DNA of 64,000 nt from Candidatus Calditenuis fumarioli (lineage in GTDB: Archaea > Thermoproteota > Nitrososphaeria_A > Caldarchaeales > Calditenuaceae). Under the pieces are notes generated by a model. The model was not told the origin of the DNA. It did not search any database and was given only the letters and a program-made list of their open reading frames with translations. Positions within the stretch are counted from its first letter, which is position 1. The number at the start of each line of letters is the position of its first letter. Position numbers and translations under genes: made by a program. Positions 9,800 through 63,737 of the stretch are shown here, one piece after another. The DNA is taken from the NCBI GenBank assembly GCA_030059665.1, contig JANVYR010000001.1, positions 384,001 to 448,000 of the forward strand, written 5' to 3'.

Positions 9800-10828
9800 T
9801 TGGGAGACGGAGCTGAGGCCGGTGTCCAGTTCGTGAAGCTGGACCTGAGGCGCTACCACAAGGCGGGCTACCGGGTGGTGGGTGAGTTCAAGCACTCGGC
9901 TGTTGAGATCTGCCGCTGGACCAGGTCGAGGCTCAGGGGTGGGAGGAACTGCTACAAGTCCGTCTACGGCATCGACTCCGGCCGCTGCATCCAGATGACA
10001 CCGACGCTGGACTTCTGCAACTTCGCATGCCCCTGGTGCTGGAGGCCATTCGGCCCCTACAGGCACAAGGCCCACGGAAGGGAGTGGGACGATCCCGAGA
10101 CCATAGTGAGGGAGATGGTCAGGGCCCAGAGGCAACTCCTGTCCGGGTTCGGAGGGAACCCCAAAACCGACAAGTCCTATTACAGGAAGGCGCTCAGACC
10201 GGCCCACGTAGCAATATCCCTTGACGGGGAGCCGACGCTCTACCCGAAGATCGCGGAGCTGATCAAGGAGATCCACTCGAAGGGCATGACGACCTTCCTC
10301 GTCACCAACGGCACCATGCCGAACAGGTTGAGGGAGATGCTGGAGAAGGACGCGATACCCACGAACCTCTTCGTCAGCGTCTACGCCACCAACCGGGAGG
10401 ACTACGTGAAGGTGACCAAGTCCGTGATCCCCGATGCCTTCGACAGGGTCTTGGAGAGCTTATCGCTGCTGAGGGAGTTCGAGAGGAGGGGGTGCAGGAC
10501 GGTGATCCGGCTGACGCTGGTGAAGGGGCTGAACATGAAGGACCCGGAGGGGTACGCGGAGCTGATCAAGCGCTACCAGCCCAACTTCACCGAGTTCAAG
10601 GGCTACGCCTGGCTCGGCGAGTCGAGGCAGAGGCTGACCCAGGACGCCTCCCCAACGTTCGAGGAGCTGAGGGAGTTCGAGCAGAGGGTGGACGCGATTA
10701 CGGAGTACAAGCCCGTGATGCTCGACAAGGTCAGCAACATCATCGTCTCCGTCAGGGACCGGGAGAGCTGGAGGAGGAACCTCGAGGTCGCTGCGGTGAT
10801 ATCCAAGCTGCCGGGATACAGCGGCTGA
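9800..10828 (+). CDS. taw1: 4-demethylwyosine synthase Taw1/Tyw1 (radical SAM)
   Basis: CRWT...CYK..YGI...RCIQMTP, CNFACPWC (CxxxCxxC), SLDGEPTLYP and FLVTNG. Confidence 0.92.
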   Translation: MGDGAEAGVQFVKLDLRRYHKAGYRVVGEFKHSAVEICRWTRSRLRGGRNCYKSVYGIDSGRCIQMTPTLDFCNFACPWCWRPFGPYRHKAHGREWDDPETIVREMVRAQRQLLSGFGGNPKTDKSYYRKALRPAHVAISLDGEPTLYPKIAELIKEIHSKGMTTFLVTNGTMPNRLREMLEKDAIPTNLFVSVYATNREDYVKVTKSVIPDAFDRVLESLSLLREFERRGCRTVIRLTLVKGLNMKDPEGYAELIKRYQPNFTEFKGYAWLGESRQRLTQDASPTFEELREFEQRVDAITEYKPVMLDKVSNIIVSVRDRESWRRNLEVAAVISKLPGYSG

Positions 10829-10890
10829 GTGCTAAAAGTCGACGTTGGAGGCCCCGAACCCTCGCCCAGCCTTCAGCGCTGAGCCGACCA

Positions 10891-10905
10891 CACGACTATA
10901 TCGTG
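10891..10905. promoter_or_regulatory. Palindrome CACGA-CTATA-TCGTG centred on a TATA-like element
   Basis: Perfect 5-bp arms 21-35 nt upstream of ATG 10926. Confidence 0.35.
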
Positions 10906-10925
10906 CCGGTGAAAACGATGAGGTG

Positions 10926-11333
10926 ATGTCGGCCCGTCCGCTGCCGAGGGTTCAGGAGTACACGAAGGCGTTCTGGGAAGGAGTGAAGTCGGGCAAGCTC
11001 CTCATCCAGAGGTGCAGATCGTGCGGGAGCTATCAGCACTATCCCAGACCGGGATGCGCCTCCTGCGGCTCGAGGGACCTCGGGTGGGTCGAGTCCTCAG
11101 GTAGGGGGAGGATCTACAGCCTGACGGTCCCCAGGGTTGTCATCGGTGACCAGAAGGCCTTCGAGGCCGAGATCCCGTACGTGCTCGCGATGGTGGACCT
11201 GGAGGAGGGAGTGAGGATCCTGGCAAGGGTCACAGGTTACTCGAGGCCCGAGGAGGTCTCGATCGGGGATCAAGTCGTCTTCGAGCCCGTCGACGTCGGG
11301 GGCTTCCACCTGCCGTACTTCAAGAAGGCGTAG
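10926..11333 (+). CDS. DUF35 Zn-ribbon/OB-fold protein (stand-alone)
   Basis: AFWEG...IQRCRSCGSYQHYPRPGCASCGS, GRGRIYS and PYVLAMVDLEEG; start at ATG 10926 after GAGGTG. Confidence 0.9.
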   Translation: MSARPLPRVQEYTKAFWEGVKSGKLLIQRCRSCGSYQHYPRPGCASCGSRDLGWVESSGRGRIYSLTVPRVVIGDQKAFEAEIPYVLAMVDLEEGVRILARVTGYSRPEEVSIGDQVVFEPVDVGGFHLPYFKKA

Positions 11334-26032: not shown

Positions 26033-27742
26033 ATGTCCACAGTAGACGAGCTCATCATCAACAGGTTCTGGGTGAAATCGTATCCGCCCGATATCAGGCC
26101 GGACATCGAGATCCCGGCGAAGACCTACCACGAGCTCTTCCTCGAGTCGGCTGAGCGGAGGTCCAACAAGGTCGCGGTGATCTTCGCGGGCTCGGAGTTC
26201 ACGTACGGCCAGGTCCTCGACGCTGCCCTCAGGGTCGCAGGTTACCTGAGGTCGATCGGCGTGAGAGAGGGCGACAGGGTCTCACTCGTCCTTCCCAACT
26301 CGCCCCAGTTCATCGCATCGTACTTCGGGACCCTCATGACGGGCGCAGCTGTCGTCCCCATCAACCCGCTGTACAAGGCTGGGGAGATAGGGTACATGCT
26401 CGCGAAGAGCAGGGCTAAGGCGGTCTTCACGCTCGACCTGTTCCACGATGAGGTCCTGAAGGCCGTTGAGGGTACCTCCGTGGAGAAGGTGATCGTCTCG
26501 AACATCGCCGACCATCTGCCACCGGTCAAGCGGGTCCTCGGAAAGCTGCTGAGGAAGGTGCCATCGAAGCCGGTGAAGAGGGACGCCATGGTCGTCGGCT
26601 ACAACAGGGTCCTCTCGAGCAGACCTCTCCCGACGGACGAGATCGCACGACCTGACCCGGCATCGACCCCTGCGGCGATATGCTTCACCAGCGGCACCAC
26701 GGGCCTCCCGAAGGCGGCTGTCCTCACCCACAGGAACCTCGTCTCGAACATACACCAGAGCTACGAGGTGGCAAAGACCGCGCTCAGCGAGGACGAGACT
26801 GTGCTGGCGGTCCTCCCGTTCTTCCACATTTACGGCCAGACGGCGATCATGGGCTTTGGTCTCACCTTCGGCTTCAGGCTCGTGGTGGTTCCGAGGCCGA
26901 ACGTCGACGAGATTCTAGAGCTGATCGAGCGGTACCGGGTAACCATCGTCTTCGGGGTTCCGGCCCTCTACAACGCGATGATCTCTTCCCCCAAGTTCAG
27001 GAGGGAGATCTTCTCCCACGTCAAGCTCTGCGTCTCGGGTGCCGACAAGCTGCACGAGGAGATAGCGAAGAGGTTCGAGCAGGCGACGGGCGTCCGCATA
27101 GTGGAGGGATACGGCCTCACCGAGACCAGCCCCATAACCCACCTGAACCCGCCTGCGAGGACGAAGATCGGTTCGATCGGTCTGCCGGTCCCGAACACGC
27201 TCGCATGGGTCTTCAAGCTGGAATCGAACGTGCCTTTGGGGGTTGGACAGGAGGGCGAGCTGGCGATCTCGGGGCCGCAGGTCATGGAAGGTTACCTCGA
27301 GGACCCTGAGGCGAACAGAACGGCCTTCTTCACCCTCTTCGGGAGGAAGTGGTTCAGGACCGGAGACATCGCCAAGGTCGACGAGGAGGGATACTTCTAC
27401 ATCATCGAGCGGAAGAAGGACCTGATCAAGTACAAGGGATGGTCGATCTACCCGGCCCAGGTGGAGAACCTGGTGCTGAAGCACGAGGCGGTCCAGGCGG
27501 TGGGCGTGGTTGGCGTGCCGGACGTTGAGGTCGGTGAGAGGGTCGTGATGTTCGTGGTGTTGAAGCCCGAGTACAGGGGGAAGGTCAAGGAGGAGGACCT
27601 GATGGAGTGGTGCAGGAAGAACTTGGCTCCGTTCCAGGTGCCCTACAGGATCTTCTTCAAGGAGGAGCTGCCGGTGAGCATGACCGGCAAGGTGCTGAGG
27701 AGGGTGCTGAGGGAGGAGGCGGCGACGCTGCTGAAGTCCTGA
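26033..27742 (+). CDS. fadD: Long-chain fatty acid-CoA ligase
   Basis: FTSGTTGLPK, VEGYGLTE, FRTGDI, ERKKDLI and GKVLRR adenylation motifs. Confidence 0.9.
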   Translation: MSTVDELIINRFWVKSYPPDIRPDIEIPAKTYHELFLESAERRSNKVAVIFAGSEFTYGQVLDAALRVAGYLRSIGVREGDRVSLVLPNSPQFIASYFGTLMTGAAVVPINPLYKAGEIGYMLAKSRAKAVFTLDLFHDEVLKAVEGTSVEKVIVSNIADHLPPVKRVLGKLLRKVPSKPVKRDAMVVGYNRVLSSRPLPTDEIARPDPASTPAAICFTSGTTGLPKAAVLTHRNLVSNIHQSYEVAKTALSEDETVLAVLPFFHIYGQTAIMGFGLTFGFRLVVVPRPNVDEILELIERYRVTIVFGVPALYNAMISSPKFRREIFSHVKLCVSGADKLHEEIAKRFEQATGVRIVEGYGLTETSPITHLNPPARTKIGSIGLPVPNTLAWVFKLESNVPLGVGQEGELAISGPQVMEGYLEDPEANRTAFFTLFGRKWFRTGDIAKVDEEGYFYIIERKKDLIKYKGWSIYPAQVENLVLKHEAVQAVGVVGVPDVEVGERVVMFVVLKPEYRGKVKEEDLMEWCRKNLAPFQVPYRIFFKEELPVSMTGKVLRRVLREEAATLLKS

Positions 27743-27805: not shown

Positions 27806-29758
27806 TCACTCTCCCTTGAACTCCGGTTTCCTCTTCGAGAAGAAAGCGGATATGCCCTCCATCAGGTCCTTCGTCGCGAACAGGTGGGCGAACAGGCTCG
27901 ACTCGTGCCGGAGCCCCTCGTCGATCGGGACCTCGAGGGCCGCGTTGATGGCGTCCTTCGCAGCGGCGAGGGCGATTGGAGGCATCTCCGCCAGCCTCAT
28001 CGCGAACTCCCTCACCTCACGCTCGAAGCCCTCCGGGGGGACCACCTTGTCGATGATTCCCAACCTGAGGGCCTCCTCCGCTTTGATCCGGTCGCCGAGG
28101 AAGATCACGAGCTTCGCCTTGGACGGCCCTATCAAGCGGGTCAACCGCTGGGTAGCACCCCCTCCCGGAATGAGACCAAGCCTGATCTCGGGCTGACCGA
28201 CCTCCGACCTCTCGGTGGCGATCCTGAAGTCGCACGCGAGTGCCAGCTCCAGACCTCCGCCGAGGGCGAAACCGTCGATCGCGGCTATCACCGGCTTGGG
28301 AGACCTCTCTATCTTACGGAGGAGCTCGTTGAACCTCAGCGAGAAGCGGTGGGCCATGGGCACCTTGCTCTCGGTGGCGAGGATCTCGGAGAAGGCCGTT
28401 ATGTCCGCACCTGCGGAGAAGGCCCTACCTCCGGCACCAGTCAGAACTATCACCCTCACCGAGCGGTCCTCGGAGAGGTCCTTGAGGGCCACCTCCAGCT
28501 CCTCAATCATCTTGGGCGAAATGGCGTTGAGCCTGTGAGGACGGTTCAGCACGATCCAGCCTATCGGCGGCTCCCTCCTTACCTCGATCTCCTCGAACGA
28601 CGCAGCAGCTGGTCTCGGCTGGGATACGAGCGAAAGGAGGTACGACGACGGAGCGTAGCCCTCACCCAGCTCCGCCCTGAGCTCGCTCAACACGGAGTTC
28701 ACCTTCTCCGGTGTCAGCTCCGAAGCGTAGCCGAAAACGCCTCGGGGCAGATTGAGGCCGAGCTTCATGGCGGTCTCCACGTCCTCGTGACTGGCGACTC
28801 CCTGCTCAACAAGCCTCGCTGCCTCGTTCATCCCAGGCACGATCATGTACCAGATGTCCACGTCCCTGCCAGCGTCCTGGGGTATGCTCGGCCTCGCGCC
28901 TGCAGGCCACTCGTAGAAACCCCTCCCGGTCTTCGCACCCAGCTCCCCCCTCTCCACGTACCTCCTCAGGAGCTCGATTGGCCTGAAGGTCCTGTCGCGC
29001 TCGGCGATCACCTTCGAGACGTTGTAAGCGACGTCGATGCCCACGTAGTCCGCGAGCTCGAAGGCGCCCATCGGGAAGCCCGCCCTGTACTTCAAAGCCG
29101 AGTCGATCTGGACCGGTGTGTACCTCCCCTTCTCCACGAGGTGGCATGCGACCTCGAAGAACCGCGTGAGCACCCTGTTGACGATGAACCCCGGAACGTC
29201 CCTGTTAACCGTCACGACGGTCTTGCCGAGCGACCTAGCGAACTCGGTCGCGAGCCTCTTCGTCTCCTCGCTCGTCCTGCTCCCGATGATGACCTCCACC
29301 AGCTGCATCAGTTGTGGAGGGTTGAAAAAGTGGATGCCGAGGAACCTCTCCGGTCTCTCCACCGCGGCCTGCAGCTCATCGATCGGGATGGAGCTGGTGT
29401 TGGTACCGAGGAGCCTGGCCCTCCTTGCGGCCCTGCTGGCCCTCCGCCATGTGTCGAGCTTCACCTGGAGGTCCTCGAAGACCGCCTCGATCACCACGTC
29501 CGCATCCGCACATGCGGACTCGAGCGAGGTGGTGGTCCTGATCCTGCCCATAACCTTCTCGACTTCCTCGGGCCTGATCCTCCCGCGCTCCGCGAACTTC
29601 CCAAGGCTCCACCTGATCTTCTCTAGTGCCCTTCCCAGGATCTCCTCAGAGACGTCGACCACGGTGACGCTGTACCCCGACATCGCAGCGACCTGCGCGA
29701 TCCCGTGCCCCATCGTTCCCGCTCCGATGACGACGACCCTCTCCAGACCCGATGACAT
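27806..29758 (-). CDS. Bifunctional 3-hydroxyacyl-CoA dehydrogenase / enoyl-CoA hydratase
   Basis: VIGAGTMGHGI, NTSSI, HFFNPP and GFIVNR; C-terminal crotonase domain AFSAGAD, GGGLELALACD, PEIRLGLIPGGG. Confidence 0.93.
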   Translation of the reverse strand: MSSGLERVVVIGAGTMGHGIAQVAAMSGYSVTVVDVSEEILGRALEKIRWSLGKFAERGRIRPEEVEKVMGRIRTTTSLESACADADVVIEAVFEDLQVKLDTWRRASRAARRARLLGTNTSSIPIDELQAAVERPERFLGIHFFNPPQLMQLVEVIIGSRTSEETKRLATEFARSLGKTVVTVNRDVPGFIVNRVLTRFFEVACHLVEKGRYTPVQIDSALKYRAGFPMGAFELADYVGIDVAYNVSKVIAERDRTFRPIELLRRYVERGELGAKTGRGFYEWPAGARPSIPQDAGRDVDIWYMIVPGMNEAARLVEQGVASHEDVETAMKLGLNLPRGVFGYASELTPEKVNSVLSELRAELGEGYAPSSYLLSLVSQPRPAAASFEEIEVRREPPIGWIVLNRPHRLNAISPKMIEELEVALKDLSEDRSVRVIVLTGAGGRAFSAGADITAFSEILATESKVPMAHRFSLRFNELLRKIERSPKPVIAAIDGFALGGGLELALACDFRIATERSEVGQPEIRLGLIPGGGATQRLTRLIGPSKAKLVIFLGDRIKAEEALRLGIIDKVVPPEGFEREVREFAMRLAEMPPIALAAAKDAINAALEVPIDEGLRHESSLFAHLFATKDLMEGISAFFSKRKPEFKGE

Positions 29759-54938: not shown

Positions 54939-56945
54939 ATGCCAGCTCACAGGCTGCTCTGGTCCCCCAGCGAGGATGACGTTGAGGACGCCAACATCAC
55001 CAAATTCATCGAGTTCGTGGTCAGGCGAAGGGGCATAGAGCTGGGAGGCTACTTCGACCTTTACGACTGGTCGGTCTCGGAGATACCAGAGTTCTGGAGG
55101 GAGGTCTGGGACTTCGTCGGCGTCATCTCCTCCGAGGGTTACACCGCGGTCGTCGACGACCTGAAGAAGTTCCCCGGTGCGAGGTGGTTCGTCGGAGCGA
55201 AGCTGAACTTCGCGGAGAACCTGATGAGGTACGGCGACGAGCGGACCGCGATCGTCTTCAGGGACGAGACCGGTGAGAGGAGGGAGTACACCTACCGGGA
55301 CGCCCACCTCGAGGTCGCCCGCTTCAGGGAGTACCTGAAGGAGATCGGCGTCGGACCAGGAGACAGGGTTGTGTCCTACATGCCGAACGTGCCCGAGACG
55401 GTCTTCGCCATGCTCGCAGCCACAAGCCTCGGGGCCGCTTGGTCCTCCACCGGAACCGAGCTCGGGCCCACAGCGGTGATCGACAGGCTGGGACAGCTGG
55501 AGCCGAAGGTCATGATCACCGTGGACCAGTCTGTTTACAAGGGCAGGATAACGGACGTCAGGCAGAACGCGGCGAAGATCGCCGGGTCCATCCCCTCGCT
55601 CGAGGCGGTCCTCGTCGTGGAGAGGTTCCGGGAGAGGGCCGACGTCTCATCGATTCCGAAGGCCGTCAGCGCCTCGGACGTCCTCTCCGGCAAGGGCGAG
55701 GCCGAGAGCGTCAGATTCGAGCAGGTGGAGGCCAACAGTCCGGTTTACGTCATGTTCTCCTCGGGGACCACCGGGAAGCCCAAGTGCATGGTCCAGAGCG
55801 TCGCCGGAGTCCTGGTGAACCACCTGAAGGAGCTCGTCCTGCACACGGATCTGAAAAGGGAGGACGCGCTGCTTTACATCACATCGCCGAGCTGGATGAT
55901 GTGGAACTGGATGACCAGCTCGCTGGCCGTGGGCTCCGAGCTCGTGCTCTTCGACGGCAACCCGCTGTACCCTGACTGGAAAACGATCTGGCGCATCGTG
56001 GAGGAGGAGGGAGTGACGGTGTTCGGTTGCAGCGCCAGCTACGTCTACGCCATCAAAGGCGCCAACGCGGAGCCCGGAAGGGAGTTCGACCTCTGGAGGT
56101 TGAGGGAAATCTCCCAGACCGGGTCGCCCCTCTCGGCGGACGGCTTCGCCTGGGTATACGAGCACGTCAAGTCCGACCTCTGGTTCAACTCGATCTCCGG
56201 CGGCACCGACATCAACGGCTGCTTCCTCGCGGGTAGCCCGACGCTTCCCGTCTACGCCGGGGAGCTCCAGGCCCCTGCTCTCGGGATGAAGGTGAAGGCT
56301 TACGACGAGATGGGGAACGAGGTCTACGACAGGGAGGGCGAGCTGGTCTGCGAGGCTCCTTCGCCCTCGATGCCGATCTACTTCTGGAACGACCCTGATT
56401 ACAGGAGGTACGTGGAGACCTACTTCGAGTTCTACCGCAGGGTGGGGAAGAACGTCTGGAGGCACGGCGACTGGATAACGATCTACTCGGACACGAGGAG
56501 CGCGGTCATCCACGGGAGGTCGGACGCCACCCTGAAGGTCTCGGGCGTCAGGATCGGTACCGCTGAGATCTACCGGGTGGTGGAGAGGTTCCCCGAGGTC
56601 GCTGACAGCCTGGTAGCATCGCTCGACCTGGAAGGCGAAACGGTCGTCGTACTCTTCGTCAAGATGCGGGAGGGTAAGGAGCTGACGGAGGACCTCGCGG
56701 ATCGGATCAGGAGGGCTCTGAGGGAGGAGGCTTCGCCGAGGCACGTGCCGCACTACGTCGTCGCAGCACCCGACATACCGTACACCTTCAACCTGAAGAA
56801 GGTCGAGATTGCGGTTACGAACCTCCTCAACGGCAGGCCCGTAACGAACAGGGAGGCTATCGTGAACGCGGAGGTCCTGGAGTTCTACGAGAGGTTCGCG
56901 CAGGATTTGAGGAGGAAGCTGACGGAGTCCGGGAAGAGAGGTTAG
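54939..56945 (+). CDS. Acetoacetate-CoA ligase
   Basis: LWSPS, FPGARWF..AKLNFAENL, MFSSGTTGKPKCMVQ, WMMWNW, SISGGTDI and GRSDATL. Confidence 0.9.
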   Translation: MPAHRLLWSPSEDDVEDANITKFIEFVVRRRGIELGGYFDLYDWSVSEIPEFWREVWDFVGVISSEGYTAVVDDLKKFPGARWFVGAKLNFAENLMRYGDERTAIVFRDETGERREYTYRDAHLEVARFREYLKEIGVGPGDRVVSYMPNVPETVFAMLAATSLGAAWSSTGTELGPTAVIDRLGQLEPKVMITVDQSVYKGRITDVRQNAAKIAGSIPSLEAVLVVERFRERADVSSIPKAVSASDVLSGKGEAESVRFEQVEANSPVYVMFSSGTTGKPKCMVQSVAGVLVNHLKELVLHTDLKREDALLYITSPSWMMWNWMTSSLAVGSELVLFDGNPLYPDWKTIWRIVEEEGVTVFGCSASYVYAIKGANAEPGREFDLWRLREISQTGSPLSADGFAWVYEHVKSDLWFNSISGGTDINGCFLAGSPTLPVYAGELQAPALGMKVKAYDEMGNEVYDREGELVCEAPSPSMPIYFWNDPDYRRYVETYFEFYRRVGKNVWRHGDWITIYSDTRSAVIHGRSDATLKVSGVRIGTAEIYRVVERFPEVADSLVASLDLEGETVVVLFVKMREGKELTEDLADRIRRALREEASPRHVPHYVVAAPDIPYTFNLKKVEIAVTNLLNGRPVTNREAIVNAEVLEFYERFAQDLRRKLTESGKRG

Positions 56946-57343
56946 GGGGCCGGCTCGAAGCCCTCTATATCCAATATCGAACCGACCCTCTTCTGCCTGA
57001 ACCTCACCCTGACCCTCATACCTTCCCTCGGATCGCCCTCGCCGAGATACCGGTGCAGAAGGCCGCCGCCGAAACCGTCGAAGGACACGAAGGCCAGCAC
57101 CTCACCGCCTCCGTACCTGGTCCAGGTGACGACCCTGCCCTCATTGGTGACCTCGACGTGCTCGACCTTGCCGTCTATGCAGTGGGGACAGAACGCGAAG
57201 GGCGGGACGTACGACCTCGAGCAGGCCCTGCACCTCGACCCCCTCAGCACGCCGTTTCGGAGGCCCTCGAGGAAGACCGAGAGCGCGAAGCCCGCAGGGT
57301 ACTCGTAGGGGTTCTCTATCGAGTGCCTGAACTCCCCTGCCAT
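56942..57343 (-). CDS. DUF35 Zn-ribbon/OB-fold protein
   Basis: From ATG 57343: FLEGLRNG..GSRCRACSRSYVPPFAFCPHC. Confidence 0.88.
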   Translation of the reverse strand: MAGEFRHSIENPYEYPAGFALSVFLEGLRNGVLRGSRCRACSRSYVPPFAFCPHCIDGKVEHVEVTNEGRVVTWTRYGGGEVLAFVSFDGFGGGLLHRYLGEGDPREGMRVRVRFRQKRVGSILDIEGFEPAP

Positions 57344-57348
57344 CCCCC

Positions 57349-57999
57349 TCACCCCCGCAAAGGTGCGAAGTAGAGCACGTCGGTGATGCTCCCCGTCCTC
57401 TCCTCCTTCGGTTTCCAGACCGGCCTCACCTTCATCCCGATCTCGATCTCGGAGGGTTCGACCTCGCCGAGCCTGTGGAGGATGCCTGCGGCGTGGGCCA
57501 CCGTTGAGCTGTTGGGCCTGATGACCTTCGTGCCCTCGAACCAGATCACCGCTATGGGCTCCGGTCTCGGCAGCCTCACCTTGGGGTTCGTGCCGATGTG
57601 GGCGATCGAGTAGGTGGCGACCTCGCCCTCGCCGCTGTGCTCGATCCACTCGTCGACCCTCCTGAAGCACCACTCGCAGAAGGTCCTGGGAGGTATCAGG
57701 ACCCTGCCGCAGCCGGTGCACCTCGTCCCCACGAACTTGCCCTCCCTCAGCCCCTGGAGGAACCTCGTCATGGCAATACCGGTGCTCCTCCTGTACCGGT
57801 AGTCGAGCAGGTATGGCGTGACCAGCAGCTCCGCAGGGAGCTCGAACTCGGTCCTGCCCCTCACCTCCTGCAACGCCTTCGTCCAGGCCCCCTCCCTGCC
57901 GTCGCCCACCTCGGCGACCGCTCTGGAGAGGAGCTCCGCGAGCGGCCCATCGAGCCCGGACAGGGTTTCCGGAGCGAACCTGACGAGCCTGGCCCTCAT
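57349..57999 (-). CDS. DUF35 Zn-ribbon/OB-fold protein with N-terminal extension
   Basis: ATG 57999 overlaps the thiolase stop; TRFLQGL..GKFVGTRCTGCGRVLIPPRTFCEWC. Confidence 0.88.
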   Translation of the reverse strand: MRARLVRFAPETLSGLDGPLAELLSRAVAEVGDGREGAWTKALQEVRGRTEFELPAELLVTPYLLDYRYRRSTGIAMTRFLQGLREGKFVGTRCTGCGRVLIPPRTFCEWCFRRVDEWIEHSGEGEVATYSIAHIGTNPKVRLPRPEPIAVIWFEGTKVIRPNSSTVAHAAGILHRLGEVEPSEIEIGMKVRPVWKPKEERTGSITDVLYFAPLRG

Positions 58000-59150
58000 C
58001 TCCTGCACACCACCACCGTGCCCACCTGCATCAGGTCACCCCACGCCTGAGCCACGCCCACATATGCGTTCGGGACCTGCCTCTTCCCCGCACGCCCGGA
58101 GAGCTGCCAGTAAAGCTCGGCGACCTTCATCAGCCCCGCTGCCGCGATGGGGTTGCCGACGCCGAGTAGGCCTCCGGAGGGCGATGCCGGATGGTCGCCG
58201 TCCCTGTGGAGCTGGCCCTCTTTCAGCAGCTTCGGTGCCAGCCCTGGCCTCCCGAGAAGCCCGTCCAGGTGATGGAGCTCCTTGTACGTGAACGGGTCGT
58301 AGGGCTCCCAGACGTCGACCTCCTTCAGCGGATTGACTATCCCCGCCATCCGGTAGGCCCTCTGCGCCGCGAGATAGACGTAGTACGGGAAGGCGAGGTC
58401 CCTGTTCGTCCAGTACTGGGAATCGAGGCACGTTGCCACACCGTCGATCCAGACCGGCGTGTCGGTGAGCTTCCTCGCCTCCTGCTCCGACGCGAGAAGG
58501 ATTGCGACCGCTCCGTCCGATGTGGGGCTGATGTCGAGCCTGTTCACAGGCCAGACCATCACCTCCGAGTTGAGCACGTCCTGGACGGTTATCCTCGCAC
58601 CGAGCTGGGCATGGGGGTGGTCGAGGGCGTTCGCCTTGTTCTTCACGGCCACCTCCGCGATGAGCTCCTTCGTCAGGTTGTGGGCCTCCATGTACCTCCT
58701 CATCTCGAGCGCGAAAATCCAGATCAGGTTCGGTCCGAGGGGTTGCTCGATCACCGGCTCGAAGATCGTCTGGAAGAGCTTCTGGGCGTGCGGGTACGGA
58801 GGGCTCATCTTCTCCCAAGCCACCACCAGGAGCGTGTCGAAGAGGCCTGAGGCGACGTGGTACCAGCCAGCGACCGCTGCGGCCACACCGCTCCCTCCTC
58901 CGACGAAGACGCGGGTGATGGGCTTGCCGATGGCCCCAGCCGCCTCGTTCGCGATCGAGACCTTGTCGTGGTAGCCGTCGAAGGCGTCGGGCGCCGAGGC
59001 GCACAGGACCCCGTCGACGTACCTGATCGAGAGGGATCCCACGTCGTCGAGGCACCTCTTCACGGCCTCCCTGATCATCTCCGGCGACGAGTGGGGGAGC
59101 ATCGACCTGAAGTCGGTCATCCCAGCACCGACTATCGCGACCCTCCTCAC
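57996..59150 (-). CDS. Thiolase-fold protein lacking catalytic Cys (Ltp3-like putative aldolase subunit)
   Basis: Thiolase fold (VAIVGAGMT, EKM, AVKNK.NA, SDGAVAI) with TRVFVGGGSG, EPYDPF and GGLLGVGNPI at the catalytic positions. Confidence 0.85.
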   Translation of the reverse strand: MRRVAIVGAGMTDFRSMLPHSSPEMIREAVKRCLDDVGSLSIRYVDGVLCASAPDAFDGYHDKVSIANEAAGAIGKPITRVFVGGGSGVAAAVAGWYHVASGLFDTLLVVAWEKMSPPYPHAQKLFQTIFEPVIEQPLGPNLIWIFALEMRRYMEAHNLTKELIAEVAVKNKANALDHPHAQLGARITVQDVLNSEVMVWPVNRLDISPTSDGAVAILLASEQEARKLTDTPVWIDGVATCLDSQYWTNRDLAFPYYVYLAAQRAYRMAGIVNPLKEVDVWEPYDPFTYKELHHLDGLLGRPGLAPKLLKEGQLHRDGDHPASPSGGLLGVGNPIAAAGLMKVAELYWQLSGRAGKRQVPNAYVGVAQAWGDLMQVGTVVVCRR

Positions 59151-60304
59151 GCCGCATCACCTGTCCTGAGGAAGGCGAGCGTCCCCGAATCGGATATCTC
59201 CGAGTGGAGGGACCCCACTATCGCGGCCCTCGCTCCCCTCACCTGGACCCTGCCGGCCTCGCCCCTGAGCTGCCTGACCGCGCCGACGAAGGCCCTCGCG
59301 CCGGAGGAGTTGAGGGAGTTCCCGTTCCCGATGCACCCACCCGAGGGATTGAGGGGGAGGGTCGATCCGGGATCGAGCTCGCCGGCCCTAAGCATCCTGA
59401 CGGCCTCTCCATCCGAGCCGAGCATGGCGGAGAGGAACTGGAGCTCCTGGTGCGCGGAGAACTCGGTGAACTCGATGAGGTCCACGGCCCTGATCGGGTT
59501 GGTGCCGATCGCGCTCCTCACCCGGTCCAGCGCAGCTCCGACCCACTCCATCTTGCCCCAGCTCCTCATCCACTGATGCGCCGCAGAGGTGGTTCCCGAG
59601 CTCCAGACCATGGCGAGCTCCACCGCCCGGTCAGAGCGTCTCCCCCACTTCTCGGTTCCGAGCACGACCACCGCGACGTAGTCCGAGAAACGGGCGACGT
59701 GCCTCCGCCTAAGCGGCTCGTAAAGGAACGGGTCCTCCTCCAGCTGCTCTGCGGTCACCTCCTCACCGTAGGGGCCTCCGGAGAGCGCCGCGTTCCTCGA
59801 GTTCTTCGCCGCGACGGAGGAGAGGTCGTGGGTTGTGCATCCGGAAGACCTAAGGAAGGCCCTCGCGTCAAGTCCCAACAGGACGTAGGGGTCGGCGAGG
59901 AGGGGCCTGAGGCAGTGCGGGTCGAGTGAAGACCTCAGCACGTCGTTGTAGTTCTCGATCTCTGATGGCCTGGCGTGGGACTCGACCACCGCGAGCTCCA
60001 TCATCCCCGACCTCAGGGCCATGTACGCGTGGAAGAGGGCCTCGAGGAAGTCGCCAGCCACGAGCATGTTGAACTTCAGCCTCGTCCCTACCTGATCGGG
60101 AGTGTATTCATCCGCAATCGATATCCCTTCGACGAAGTCCTGCTCGGCGGAGAAGAGGCCCTCGACCTCATCCGGCTCGACGCCCGCGTCAGCGTAGGCC
60201 CTGACCGCAGCCTCGAAGGTCGCCTCCCTGAAGTCGAGCTCCCTCATCGAAGTCGAGGGAGGAAGTCCCCCCACCCCGAGAACGTATACCTTGTTGAACC
60301 CCAT
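59147..60304 (-). CDS. Degenerate thiolase-fold protein (Ltp4-like partner subunit)
   Basis: VYVLGVG, VAAKNSRNA and NPSGGCIGNGN; no nucleophile Cys (VAGDFLEA) and no HDxF motif. GTGA overlap with the next gene; own TATA-like TTTTAAT about 30 nt upstream. Confidence 0.82.
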   Translation of the reverse strand: MGFNKVYVLGVGGLPPSTSMRELDFREATFEAAVRAYADAGVEPDEVEGLFSAEQDFVEGISIADEYTPDQVGTRLKFNMLVAGDFLEALFHAYMALRSGMMELAVVESHARPSEIENYNDVLRSSLDPHCLRPLLADPYVLLGLDARAFLRSSGCTTHDLSSVAAKNSRNAALSGGPYGEEVTAEQLEEDPFLYEPLRRRHVARFSDYVAVVVLGTEKWGRRSDRAVELAMVWSSGTTSAAHQWMRSWGKMEWVGAALDRVRSAIGTNPIRAVDLIEFTEFSAHQELQFLSAMLGSDGEAVRMLRAGELDPGSTLPLNPSGGCIGNGNSLNSSGARAFVGAVRQLRGEAGRVQVRGARAAIVGSLHSEISDSGTLAFLRTGDAA

Positions 60305-60482
60305 TGCAACTTCTCTTAGCGTCTATCGATTAAAAGTTTGTGCGGTGTCCGCGTGCTGTAACGCGTCTCATCTCACGGCGTTCCGCTCTCCTCCGAAACC
60401 CCATTCCAGTAGGTGAGGGTTGACGGCCCGATTTCCATCGGACGGTTTTCGAGGGACACAAGGTGATGCAAGGAATCGTCGC

Positions 60483-61652
60483 TCAGTAGGACTTCGGCAG
60501 ACCCAGGACGTGGGTCCCGATGTAGCCGAGGATGAGCTCGTTGGTGACCGGCGCGGTCTTGAAGAGGCGCAGGATCGGGTAGAGCGTGATCAGGTCGGTC
60601 CCGAGCTCGAAGGCGTAGCCCCCGAACGCCTGCATGGCGACGTCCAGAGCCTCAAGCCCTGCCTCCGACGCGAGCAGCTTGGCAGCGTTGGCCAGCTCCA
60701 GTCCCTTGCCTGACCGGTCGTGGAGCGCCGCGGCGGCGTAGACCATCGAACGGGCCGCCTCGAGGTGGGCGAAGGCCCTCGCCATCGGGAACTGCAGGCC
60801 CTGGTGCGAGCCGATCGGGACGTCGAAGACCCTCCTAGTCTTCGCGTACTCGACGGCCTTGCTCAGGGCGAAATCGCCCAGACCAACGGAGATCGCGGCG
60901 ATCATCAGCCTCTCGACGTTCAACCCCTCGAACAACGTCCTGTAACCCTCCCCCTCCCTCCCTATCAGCTGGTCGCTCGATGCCCTGACCGAGTCGAGGT
61001 AGACCGCGTACTGCCACTCGGGCCCTTTCATGTCTATGTCGAGGGGCTCCATCCTGATGCCGGGGTCCGAGGTCTCAAGGACGAAAAGGGAGATCCCGTA
61101 CCTCTTGTCGCCCACCTCGTCGTACCTCTTCGTCCTCGCCACGAGCAGCATGTAGTCCGACTCCCTCGCGCCGCTGATGAAGACCTTCTGGCCGGTGATG
61201 ACGTAGCCGTCGCCGTCCCTCCTCGCCAGCGTCGAGATCCGCCAGGTGTTCGAGCCGGCCTCAGGCTCTGTCAGGGCGAAGCTCATGCGCCTCCCCTCCG
61301 TGCACGTCGGCGTGACGAAACGCCTGATCTGCTCCTCCGTCCCAGCGGAGAGGACGATGTGCCTGCTGAAGTGGGTGACGAGGAACTGCAGCACCGGCAA
61401 ACCCTCCAGCGCCAGCGCCTCCTGCGTCAGCACCGCGCCCCTCAGCCCGAACCCCGATCCGCCGTACCTCTCCGGGACGCCAACCCCTGTCAGGCCCTGC
61501 CTCCTCATCTCCTCCCAGAGCTCATCCGGCGGCTCCCTCCTCCTCCACTTCTCGAGCCAGTAGGACCTCCCGAAAACCCTCGCGACCGACCTGGCGGTCT
61601 TCAGCAGAAGGCCCTCCTCATCGGTGAGCGTCTCGTGCAGCGGTATCCGCAA
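60483..61652 (-). CDS. Acyl-CoA dehydrogenase
   Basis: FALTEPEAGSN, ITGQKVFIS, LNVERL, FDVPIGSHQGLQF and FGGY; C-terminal TAPVTNE lacks the usual Glu. Confidence 0.92.
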   Translation of the reverse strand: MRIPLHETLTDEEGLLLKTARSVARVFGRSYWLEKWRRREPPDELWEEMRRQGLTGVGVPERYGGSGFGLRGAVLTQEALALEGLPVLQFLVTHFSRHIVLSAGTEEQIRRFVTPTCTEGRRMSFALTEPEAGSNTWRISTLARRDGDGYVITGQKVFISGARESDYMLLVARTKRYDEVGDKRYGISLFVLETSDPGIRMEPLDIDMKGPEWQYAVYLDSVRASSDQLIGREGEGYRTLFEGLNVERLMIAAISVGLGDFALSKAVEYAKTRRVFDVPIGSHQGLQFPMARAFAHLEAARSMVYAAAALHDRSGKGLELANAAKLLASEAGLEALDVAMQAFGGYAFELGTDLITLYPILRLFKTAPVTNELILGYIGTHVLGLPKSY

Positions 61653-61671: not shown

Positions 61672-62646
61672 TCAGTGGGCGGCCGACTTCCTTATCGCGT
61701 TTGCTATCCGGTCCTTGTTGGGGAGGTACAGGTGCTCGTGGACCAGAGGGTAGGGCGTGTCGTAACCGGTCACCCTCAGTATGGGCGCCTCGAGGCTGTA
61801 GATCTCCCGTTCCGCGATGGTGGCGGCGATCTCCGCGCCGAACCCTGACGTCTTCTGGGCCTCGTGGACGATCACCGGCCTCCCGGTCTTCCTGACCGAC
61901 CTCGAGATCGCCTCCCAGTCGTAGGGTATCAGGCTCCTCAGGTCTATCACCTCAACGGATATCCCCTCCTTCTCGACCTCCTCCGCGGCAGCGACCGCGT
62001 CGTAGACCGTGGCCCCGTAGGTGATCACCGTGACGTCACTGCCCTCCCTGACCAGCCTCGCCTTCCCTATCGGGACGGTGTATTCCCCATCCGGTACGTC
62101 CTCCTTCAGCGAGTGGTAGAGCCTCTTCGGCTCGAAGAAGATCACGGGGTCGTCGTCGCGTATCGCGGAGATCAGCAGCCCCTTTGCGTCGGAGGGGGTG
62201 GAGGGAACGACGACCTTCAGCCCTGCCGTGTTGGTGAAGTAGGACTCCGGGCTCTGGGAGTGGTACATCCCTCCCCTGACGCCTCCACCGACGGGAGCCC
62301 TGATCACGAGAGGTGCAGCGTAGTGGCCCGCGTTCCGGTACCTGAACTTGGCGACGTTCGAGACCAGCTGCTCGAAGCCCCCGAAGATGAAGTCGGAGAA
62401 CTGGATCTCGGCCACCGGCCTCATCCCGTTCGCAGCCAACCCGAGGGCGACGCCGATTATCGCGGACTCCGAGAGGGGAGTGTCCATGACGCGCTTGGGC
62501 CCGAACTCGACGAGGAGGCCCTCCGTGCAACGGAAGACGCCGCCGTTGACGCCCACGTCCTCGCCCAGCACAACGACCCTCTCGTCCCGCCTCATCTCGT
62601 ATCTGAGGGCCTCGTTTATCGCCTTCGCGAAGGTCAGGACCGTCAT
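61672..62646 (-). CDS. 2-oxoacid dehydrogenase E1 beta subunit (PDH/BCKDH type)
   Basis: LGEDVG..GGVFR, DTPLSE, EIQFSDF, HSQSPE and VHEA. Confidence 0.93.
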
Positions 62647-63737
62647 CCGCGCATCACCCTCTCCATCCTGAGCTGCTGCCGAAACTCCTCCATCTGCTCC
62701 CTCAGCTGCGGCGTCGGCTCCGCGTAGACGTCCTCGAAGATCACCATCGGGTCGAGTCCGGGCTTGGCGAGCGCCTTCTCTACCTCCGCGGAGACAAGCG
62801 CCTCCACCTCCGCCCAGAGCGCCTTGTCTTCCTCCTCCCCCATCACGTTCTTGGAGATCAGGTAGGACCTCATCCTCTCGATCGGATCCCTCTCCATCCA
62901 GTACCTGACCTCCTCCTCGGACCTGTACCTCTTCGGGTCGTCGCTGGTGGTGTGGGCACCGAGCCTGTACGTCACCGCCTCTATCAGCACCGGATCGCCG
63001 CCTTCCCTGACCTCCTCGAAGACGGACCTCGAGACGAGGTACATCGCGATCGCGTCGTTGCCGTCAACCCGGTATCCGCTGAGGCCGTAGGCTATCGCCT
63101 TCTGAGCTATGGTCGCTGCGCCCGTCTGCCTGCTGACGTGCGTCGAGATCGCGTACTGGTTGTTCAGGCAGATGAAGACGATGGGAGGCTTGTAGACGCT
63201 GGCGAAGTTGATCCCCTCGTGGAAGTCTCCCTTCGAGGTCGCACCGTCGCCGAAGTAGGTGACCGCGAGCCTCCGCTCTCCCCTGATCTTGAAGGCAAGC
63301 GCGTATCCCACCGCTACGGGTATCTGCGTAGCGACGGGCGTCGGAGCGGGGACGATGTTGAACCTGCTGTCGCCGAAGACGGCGAACTCGTGGCCCTTCA
63401 GCGGATCGTCGACCGTGTTCAGCTGCCTGTCCAGTATCTCCGAGATCGGTACTCCCCTGGTCAGGTAAACTCCCAGCTCCCTGTAGGACGGGAAGACCAC
63501 GTCCTCGGGCCGCAGCGCCAGAGCGGAACCGACCATCGCCGCCTCCTCGCCCAACGACTCGGCGTAGAGGGCAACCTTTCCCATCCTCTGTAATCGGAGG
63601 AGGTACCTGTCGAGGGCCCTCGTGAGCACGAGCAACCTGTACATCCTCATCAGGAGCTCCCTCTCGAGTCCGAGGTCCTCCGGGTCCGGGGGCCTTCTCT
63701 TACCCAGAATTGTAATGAATTCCCACCACCCCCTCAA
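62643..63737 (-). CDS. 2-oxoacid dehydrogenase E1 alpha subunit
   Basis: GEEA, PSYRE, TPP motif [13 protein letters not shown]...NNQYAIS and HTTSDDP. Start uncertain (TTG 63737 or ATG 63650); the track's 63998 start is over-extended. Confidence 0.92.

Follow-up and report, generated by a model that had tools for sequence, protein, structure and literature searches.

A conserved cassette of Cys-less thiolase-fold and DUF35 proteins in Candidatus Calditenuis fumarioli: a mis-annotated, possibly aldolase-like enzyme complex

Four adjacent genes encoding two thiolase-fold proteins (termed ThlA and ThlB here) and two DUF35 proteins (DUF35_1 and DUF35_2) were analyzed in a stretch of 64,000 nucleotides from Candidatus Calditenuis fumarioli (contig JANVYR010000001.1, positions 384,001 to 448,000; referred to as the window, whose numbering is used for all coordinates unless stated otherwise). 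This cassette is real, strongly conserved, and mis-annotated, and encodes a putative enzyme complex. That it is not a classical thiolase is well supported, and the label ‘acetyl-CoA acetyltransferase’ (CoA, coenzyme A) attached to ThlA and ThlB is almost certainly wrong, since a complex devoid of the catalytic Cys cannot be the enzyme named by this label. The best reading of the cassette, drawn by analogy with characterized Cys-less enzymes of the same fold, is an aldolase-like lyase, to which we assign about an even chance of being correct.

The cassette resides on the minus strand of a Caldarchaeales genome of 1.57 Mb with 64% G+C. ThlA (59147-60304, 385 amino acids, ATG start) represents a degenerate thiolase-fold subunit and is probably the non-catalytic partner of ThlB (57996-59150, 384 amino acids), a Cys-less thiolase-fold protein and the probable catalytic subunit, whose GTG start lies within a GTGA and gives a 4-nt overlap with ThlA. 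DUF35_1 (57349-57999, 216 amino acids), featuring a zinc ribbon and an OB fold, starts at the ATG of an ATGA and likewise overlaps ThlB by 4 nt. It is followed, after TGA, GGGGG, and ATG (a 5-nt gap), by the poorly conserved DUF35_2 (56942-57343, 133 amino acids). Re-reading of the minus strand agreed with the initial annotation in all these couplings and also located the TATA-like element assigned to the cassette, as a candidate TTTTAAT read by eye at 60329-60335 (minus strand), its center being approximately 28 nt 5' of the ThlA ATG. The gene calls of four public records of near-identical contigs agree, with products of 385, 384, 216, and 133 amino acids.

Alignment of ThlB with the P. furiosus thiolase 7YVY using HMMER placed Gly85 beneath the nucleophile Cys (GGGSG versus ACASG), Y284-D-P-F at the position of HDAF, and G-N333-P at that of GHP. 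The motif substitutions first noticed in ThlB (FVGGGSG, YDPF, and GNPI) were confirmed by this alignment and by 120 homologues of 61-95% identity, in which Gly85, Y284DPF, and GN333P are invariant, as they are in a second alignment (A1); an invariance of this extent does not arise by chance. Tyr284, corresponding to the catalytic base Tyr of Ltp2-type enzymes, was present in 120 out of 121 sequences. ThlA was indeed found to be degenerate at all three motif positions, with Ala/Gly (LVAGDF), TE-F, and GNS, and to carry a 3-residue deletion in the nucleophile loop. Thus, neither protein possesses the nucleophile Cys, the His of GHP, or the His/Asn and acid/base Cys of HDCF/NEAF that characterize classical thiolases. 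Among 46 cassettes from distant lineages, no conserved Cys was detected in ThlA or ThlB, which, together with the replacement of the His in both His motifs, corroborated the initial view that a classical thiolase is not encoded.

Conservation within the 46 cassettes is distributed very unevenly, as 165 of the 384 ThlB positions are at least 93% conserved, versus only 32 in ThlA. The conserved ThlB loops GGG(T/S)G, YDPFxYKELHH, GVGNPIAAAG, and QAWGDLMQ line the thiolase active site, and the W-G-D loop (Asp372), replacing the CxGG loop, contacts ThlA in the structural model. ThlB therefore seems to carry the only well-conserved active site of the complex. A different kind of substitution occurs in ST0096 of Sulfolobus tokodaii (PDB 4YZO, ‘thiolase-like protein’), which has a Ser (NTSGSG) at the nucleophile Cys position and keeps both His motifs. 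Literature searches on 4YZO and 7YVY, and on archaeal HMG-CoA (3-hydroxy-3-methylglutaryl-CoA) lyase, yielded nothing concerning the ThlA/ThlB family.

Regarding family assignment, Pfam detected Thiolase_C_1 in both thiolase-fold proteins and Thiolase_N in ThlB. With 567 bits (cut-off 455), ThlB belongs as a full member to NCBIfam PRK06065 (NF004721, ‘thiolase domain-containing protein’), whereas ThlA remained below the cut-off of its best family, PRK06066 (NF004722; 258 versus 516 bits). In DUF35_1, which has an N-terminal extension of approximately 60-80 amino acids, both zf-ChsH2 and OB_ChsH2_C exceeded the Pfam cut-offs, and the zinc-ribbon Cys4 is kept across 43 orthologues. DUF35_2 surpassed the cut-off for zf-ChsH2, its OB domain staying below threshold (16 versus 27 bits). 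The window also contains a free-standing DUF35 protein with both Pfam domains (10845-11333, plus strand), which follows a radical S-adenosylmethionine (SAM) gene of wyosine formation (9800-10828, plus strand) and has no adjacent thiolase-fold gene.

The heteromeric assembly suggested by the initial annotation gained support from strict gene adjacency and from structure prediction. A two-chain model of ThlA and ThlB reached an ipSAE value of 0.93, compared to 0.00 for the best of three controls; among solved complexes, 58 of 80 attained the corresponding mark, as did 2 of 110 mismatched pairs, but thiolase dimers are already among the solved structures, so that the predicted heterodimer may reflect that likeness, and homodimers remain compatible with the model. 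The runs shared at least 88% of contacts, with a pLDDT (predicted local distance difference test) of at least 87 for the partner. The predicted interface with ThlB includes seven of the 13 residues that are invariant in ThlA (binomial p ~0.0014); this fits a role of ThlA as structural partner. Across Caldarchaeales families, ThlB evolves slowly (~78% identity) and ThlA fast (~40%), and archaeal and bacterial ThlB still share ~60% identity. This difference argues for a constrained catalytic subunit accompanied by a structural one. Based on the precedents 6OK1, 9MYR, and 6ESQ, the DUF35 proteins would bind to ThlA-ThlB, and we infer that the four genes encode one complex.

To follow the cassette in other organisms, species-representative genomes were scanned for the ThlB-specific peptides YDPF[DT]YKE or QAWGDLMQ. 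Marker peptides of the cassette turned up in at least 592 archaeal and bacterial species genomes. Among the ThlB-bearing Archaea are members of Caldarchaeales, Bathyarchaeia, Asgard lineages, Nitrososphaerales, Sulfolobaceae, Acidilobaceae, Thermoproteaceae, and Korarchaeia, and among the ThlB-bearing Bacteria, members of Actinomycetota, Myxococcota, Deltaproteobacteria, Planctomycetota, and Chloroflexi. Within a phylum sample of 401 genomes, 83 carried ThlB, in a single copy every time. The gene order ThlA-ThlB-DUF35-DUF35 recurs in Caldarchaeales, Sulfolobales, Thermoproteales, Bathyarchaeia, Asgard archaea, and Chloroflexi, and DUF35_2 occupied the fourth place in 85 out of 117 loci examined. 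ThlB is among the most conserved acyl-CoA-related proteins common to Thermoproteota, Asgard archaea, and several bacterial phyla. S. acidocaldarius, M. sedula, P. aerophilum, and A. pernix are, as we take it, represented among the cassette-bearing genomes. For M. sedula, the orthologues Msed_0270/0271 were listed as ketothiolase candidates with the entry “ND” (PMC7078158), and saci_2232/2233 of S. acidocaldarius are annotated as acetyl-CoA acetyltransferases (PMC11486757).

The genes surrounding the cassette provide information on its metabolic context. Convergently encoded next to DUF35_2, and overlapping it by 4 nt at the stops, is an acetoacetate-CoA ligase (AACS; 54939-56945, plus strand, 668 amino acids). 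The expectation that this neighbor uses acetoacetate held, as far as family models can tell, since the protein scored 778 bits with the TIGR01217 equivalog (cut-off 521) and 837 bits with NF002937. Upstream of the cassette, on the same strand, an acyl-CoA dehydrogenase (ACAD; 60483-61652, 389 amino acids; Pfam Acyl-CoA_dh N, M, and C domains) is preceded by the genes for 2-oxoacid dehydrogenase E1 beta (61672-62646, minus strand; Pfam Transket_pyr and Transketolase_C; PRK09212, 318 bits) and E1 alpha (62643-63644, minus strand, ~333 amino acids; Pfam E1_dh; TIGR03181, 404 bits). The open reading frame of 451 amino acids at E1 alpha is over-extended, public records calling 333-335 amino acids. 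Assignment of the ACAD as isovaleryl-CoA dehydrogenase was rejected, because its scores with the best-matching models (generic short-chain ACAD and AcrC-like) fell far short of the cut-offs. The position of E1 alpha/beta directly upstream of the ACAD and the cassette is a feature of the Calditenuis genus. The only E2 core of the genome is located at 33877-34566 of contig C1, outside the window and far from the E1 pair, which accordingly lacks a dedicated E2 or E3 in its vicinity.

The association with AACS is strict in Caldarchaeales: AACS was detected in exactly those 20 of the 41 genomes that carry ThlB (20/20 with and 0/21 without), the genomes being related and hence not independent observations. 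Even within one genus (g3), five of eight genomes encode both AACS and ThlB, and three encode neither. Synteny of the cassette with the ACAD and a bona fide AACS was seen in 19 Caldarchaeales genomes, where three arrangements occur. Two local peculiarities were observed in this order. Genus g3 loci (L026-L030, e.g., L026:6055-6609) contain a small SAM-dependent methyltransferase of 184 amino acids between AACS and ACAD, and in loci of family f4 (L031, L033-L038) an E1-alpha-like gene (~347 amino acids) converges on DUF35_2, with no E1 beta detected in the 9 kb covered.

Considering all 117 loci of all lineages, an ACAD was located within 4 kb of the cassette in 45 loci and a ligase of the ACS (acetyl-CoA synthetase)/AACS type in 39. 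Further recurrent neighbors were electron-transfer flavoprotein (ETF), crotonase, canonical thiolase, and methylmalonyl-CoA-mutase-type genes with MeaB; 3-hydroxyacyl-CoA dehydrogenase was not among the recurrent neighbors in these loci. In Sulfolobales, Thermoproteales, and Acidilobales, the neighboring ligase is of an unassigned ACS-like type, not AACS. Soil Nitrososphaerales metagenome-assembled genomes (MAGs; L155 and L178), in turn, harbor a true AACS (947 bits) between ThlB and the two DUF35 genes, with ETF alpha/beta and ACAD upstream and a canonical thiolase downstream, and in Asgard loci crotonase and canonical thiolase are added beside the cassette. Genes for a mutase-type large subunit, its B12 subunit, MeaB, and adenosyltransferase flank the cassette in eight or more Bathyarchaeia loci and in a deltaproteobacterial MAG (L154). 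Bathyarchaeia loci L106, L107, L109, L112, L113, L119, L120, L124, L127, L129, and L133 feature a second gene pair of thiolase-fold and DUF35 type divergently upstream, with the mutase-type large subunit, B12 subunit, MeaB, and corrinoid adenosyltransferase often downstream.

Published expression data exist for the S. acidocaldarius locus. The genes saci_2230-2235 were co-regulated, their levels on xylose being lower than those with NZ-amine added to the xylose (bioRxiv 10.1101/2021.07.28.454237), and were higher under nutrient excess (PMC11486757). They appear to act as one regulatory unit responding to peptide or amino-acid supply and nutrient excess. Taken together, the neighborhoods and the S. 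acidocaldarius expression assign the cassette to the catabolism of short-chain acyl-CoAs, probably derived from amino acids. Relatives of Calditenuis have been described as branched-chain amino-acid specialists (PMC12979851).

As an aldolase-like lyase, the complex would consist of a ThlA-ThlB heterodimer of the SCP2-thiolase fold as its core, with one DUF35 protein probably capping each side. The ThlB site has lost the acyl-accepting Cys and both His but would keep an enolate-stabilizing pocket (Asn333 and Tyr284), so that, most likely, a C-C bond next to the thioester is made or broken without a covalent intermediate. The most probable reaction would be a retro-aldol split, in which a short 3-hydroxyacyl-CoA (C4-C6, possibly 3-methyl-branched) yields acetyl-CoA (or propionyl-CoA) and a carbonyl compound. 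The base acting on the 3-OH would be Tyr284, in keeping with Ltp2 and Sal, and the proton could be donated by some other invariant residue, candidates being Asp372 of the W-G-D loop, Tyr289-Lys290-Glu291, and His293-His294. The route would lead from an acid via CoA ligase, acyl-CoA dehydrogenase, and a hydratase encoded elsewhere to the lyase; in the Calditenuis genus, it may be fed by the branched-chain 2-oxoacid dehydrogenase E1 and tied to acetoacetate activation. A fused 3-hydroxyacyl-CoA dehydrogenase/enoyl-CoA hydratase of 650 amino acids (27806-29758, minus strand), located ~28 kb from the cassette and beside an AMP-forming acyl-CoA ligase (26033-27742, plus strand), is a possible source of the hydratase.

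Three Cys-less systems are available for comparison. TcLtp2-ChsH2 (PDB 6OK1), the steroid C3 side-chain retro-aldolase that converts a tertiary 3-hydroxyacyl-CoA into a ketone and an acyl-CoA, has in common with ThlB the SCP2-thiolase fold, the lack of a catalytic Cys, a Tyr as first residue of xDxF, and a DUF35 partner. In Ltp2, the Tyr of YDHF serves as base, the His of the same motif forms the oxyanion hole, and Tyr344 is the acid (PMC12329534). However, Ltp2 is a homodimer with YDHF and Tyr344, whereas ThlB has YDPF and Asn333 and thus neither the Ltp2-type His nor Tyr344; in the alignment of ThlA with Ltp2, Tyr344 falls at the GHP position, i.e., that of ThlB Asn333. Likewise, the DUF35 of Ltp2 is a domain of the hydratase ChsH2, whereas in the cassette both DUF35 proteins are free-standing and a hydratase gene is absent. 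The bile-acid C5 side-chain aldolase CtSal-CtShy(DUF35) (PDB 9MYR; PMC12329534) also shares the catalytic Tyr and the DUF35 partner with ThlB. Here, the Tyr and Cys of YDCY are catalytic, a Gly occupies the nucleophile position, and Gln352 is equivalent to Tyr344 (PMC12329534), so that Gly89 and Gln352 of Sal have counterparts in Gly85 and the amide side chain of Asn333. Sal differs in being a homodimer acting on steroids and in its essential Cys304 of YDCY, at whose place ThlB has Pro286.

The third system, Ltp3-Ltp4 of actinobacterial C24-branched sterol side-chain degradation, was proposed to be an aldol-lyase acting on a branched 3-hydroxyacyl-CoA (Wilbrink et al. 2012, as cited in PMC10398937). 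It resembles ThlA-ThlB in being encoded by two different, adjacent thiolase-fold genes, and the combination of two unlike thiolase-fold subunits with two DUF35 domains parallels the Ltp3/Ltp4-type architecture; however, the evidence for Ltp3/4 is genetic only, and its sterol substrates are absent from these archaea. True archaeal thiolases represent the closest relatives of the cassette in sequence and fold and likewise form thiolase-fold dimers held in larger DUF35 assemblies. In contrast to the cassette, they keep the Cys/His set and perform Claisen condensation, whereas the cassette combines unlike subunits without these residues with two unlike DUF35 proteins.

Several observations weigh against the aldolase-like lyase. 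By sequence and by fold, ThlB resembles true archaeal thiolases more closely than Ltp2 or Sal: phmmer returned 1e-42 for the P. furiosus thiolase 7YVY versus 1e-15 for Ltp2, and with the ThlB model (pLDDT 83.4, predicted SCP2-thiolase fold) Foldseek placed Ltp2 at rank 18 and Sal at rank 29, all SCP2-type thiolases being matched without discrimination. The scores of ThlB with PRK08313 (237 versus 514 bits) and of ThlA with PRK07937 (75 versus 419 bits) remained far below the cut-offs of these actinobacterial families, which presumably stand for Ltp3 and Ltp4. Moreover, Pro286 is invariant where Sal has Cys304 and Ltp2 His296, and Asn333 stands in place of Ltp2 Tyr344, so that the proton donors of both characterized aldolases are absent; the Sal variants C304A/S/H were inactive (PMC12329534). 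The model loop 329-333, part of the active site, has a pLDDT below 50, no hydratase gene is present in the cluster, and no biochemical study of any family member was found in the literature, where the orthologues appear only as candidate or annotated thiolases. In view of this closer kinship with true thiolases, the aldolase reading rests on convergence and not on family membership. An aldolase function of ThlB, if any, would be an independent invention that may work like Ltp2 and Sal outside their families. For the Ltp3/Ltp4-type aldolase proposed in the initial annotation, the subunit architecture, the Tyr, and the Gly stood, whereas family membership and the proton donor did not.

Within the lyase interpretation, a more specific role is conceivable, although we regard it as doubtful, namely the biotin-independent disposal of 3-methyl-branched short acyl-CoAs derived from leucine/isovalerate or isoprenoids, the tertiary alcohol being split directly after the ACAD and hydratase steps. 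HMG-CoA would then give acetoacetate, or 3-hydroxyisovaleryl-CoA acetone, each together with acetyl-CoA. On this tentative basis, Tyr284, Asn333, and a new proton donor might form a catalytic set undescribed in any thiolase-fold enzyme. An acetone route to AACS, from 3-hydroxyisovaleryl-CoA via acetone and acetone carboxylase, was considered and rejected, given that hydantoinase_B homologues occurred in 26 of the 41 Caldarchaeales genomes, seven of which lack the cassette. Acetone carboxylase gamma (PF08882) gave no match in five genomes, the controls likewise being without match. The only hydantoinase_B homologue of the genome studied here (contig C1, 195564-197099, outside the window) is broken by three TGA and one TAA, whereas the copies of relatives are intact; this could reflect a pseudogene or, alternatively, a match running across frameshifts.

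The initial annotation had also proposed a non-homologous HMG-CoA lyase, which we consider unlikely. Leucine would be converted via E1 to isovaleryl-CoA and, by ACAD, methylcrotonyl-CoA carboxylase, and a hydratase, to HMG-CoA, which would be cleaved to acetyl-CoA and acetoacetate, the latter being re-activated by AACS. The cleavage is of the same retro-aldol chemistry type. This proposed cleavage giving acetoacetate for AACS would be the sole likeness to the canonical HMG-CoA lyase (DRE-TIM, NF004283), a metal-dependent enzyme of unrelated fold. The best match to NF004283 in this genome reached 90 bits versus a cut-off of 246, and none above the cut-off was found in the 41 Caldarchaeales or the 401 phylum genomes; with the whole phylum sample lacking the canonical lyase, however, no contrast for a complementary distribution is obtainable. 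The genomic context agrees with the proposal, including the 20/20 versus 0/21 co-occurrence of AACS and ThlB, the adjacency of AACS in three arrangements, the AACS (947 bits) inside the soil Nitrososphaerales cassettes beside ACAD, ETF, and canonical thiolase, one carboxyltransferase in this genome, and the E1 alpha/beta genes directly upstream in this genus, whose relatives are branched-chain amino-acid specialists (PMC12979851).

The distribution of the carboxylase speaks against an HMG-CoA lyase. The carboxyltransferase PF01039 was not found in any genome of the cassette-carrying families f13 (0/23), f15 (0/13), and f24 (0/14) or of genus g3 (0/8), and biotin carboxylase was missing from about half of the cassette-bearing genomes. 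Five such genomes lacked both PF01039 and the biotin carboxylase PF02785 even at E 1e-3. Three of them (two of genus g3 and one 99%-complete genome of family f4) are Caldarchaeales with the AACS-ACAD-cassette cluster; the other two are complete genomes, presumably those of P. aerophilum and A. pernix. Without biotin carboxylase there is no methylcrotonyl-CoA carboxylase, and leucine cannot reach HMG-CoA by the known route in these organisms. Yet ThlB is ~60-80% identical in the carboxylase-less genomes and presumably catalyzes the same reaction as elsewhere; a protein conserved to this degree is expected to do so everywhere, which counts against HMG-CoA cleavage. In addition, the ligase outside Nitrososphaeria is of the unassigned ACS-like type and not AACS, the ACAD is not assignable to isovaleryl-CoA dehydrogenase, and lyase plus AACS would constitute an ATP-wasting cycle if HMG-CoA synthase were the sole source of HMG-CoA. 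Hence, the contextual part of the proposal (E1 alpha/beta, ACAD, AACS next door, and no canonical lyase) stood, whereas the equal conservation of the cassette in genomes without carboxyltransferase or biotin carboxylase opposes the proposed substrate. Overall, the earlier interpretation was right in kind (not a thiolase, and probably a lyase with DUF35 partners), but its specifics, i.e., the Ltp family and HMG-CoA, were not established.

Given the loss of the catalytic residues, a biotin-independent decarboxylase of malonyl-, methylmalonyl-, or glutaconyl-type acyl-CoAs, with only the thioester oxyanion hole left as in KS-Q/CLF domains, was also considered but seems improbable. TbSLP, which resembles SCP2-thiolases but lacks the Cys and has the Tyr found in ThlB, is a weak malonyl-CoA decarboxylase, although its kcat is only 0.005 per s, and Sal has no such activity (PMC12329534). 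The mutase-type genes and MeaB flanking the cassette in the Bathyarchaeia loci and the deltaproteobacterial locus, as well as the many cassette-bearing genomes without biotin-dependent (de)carboxylases, would be in line with decarboxylation; however, the link to AACS and ACAD is left unexplained, and a four-protein complex of ~1100 residues would be elaborate for such a reaction.

Cleavage of 3-ketoacyl-CoA without an acyl-enzyme, in which a second CoA bound via ThlA and DUF35 attacks acetoacetyl-CoA (or 2-methylacetoacetyl-CoA) directly, has similarly poor prospects. It would accord with the acetoacetyl-CoA produced by the neighboring AACS, with the annotation tradition, and with the true thiolases as closest relatives, and DUF35 takes part in building a shared CoA site within the archaeal thiolase/HMG-CoA synthase complex (as summarized in 10.1101/2024.07.05.601840). 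Against this, thiolysis without a nucleophilic Cys is unprecedented, both catalytic His are replaced as well, and the activity would be redundant in cassette-bearing genomes, which keep Cys-containing thiolases (also in this genome, and directly adjacent to the cassette in cluster c7). Finally, a non-catalytic scaffold, carrier, or regulator derived from dead thiolase paralogues would explain why all canonical catalytic residues were lost from both subunits, but is highly improbable in view of a ThlB conservation across phyla (165/384 positions, including the active-site loops) far beyond scaffold needs and of its presence as one copy per genome in at least 592 species.

The results for this cassette concern many existing annotations, since hundreds of genomes and metabolic reconstructions label its genes as acetyl-CoA acetyltransferase (e.g., Msed_0270/0271), and leucine pathways of Calditenuis have been declared “complete”. 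S. acidocaldarius, the host of the orthologous genes saci_2230-2235, has genetic tools. The cassette enzyme could provide a thermostable catalyst for C-C bond formation. Once solved, its reaction would add a third catalytic solution among Cys-less thiolase-fold lyases and, as no canonical HMG-CoA lyase was found in the 401 phylum genomes, would close a gap in the way archaea break down short- and branched-chain acyl-CoAs.

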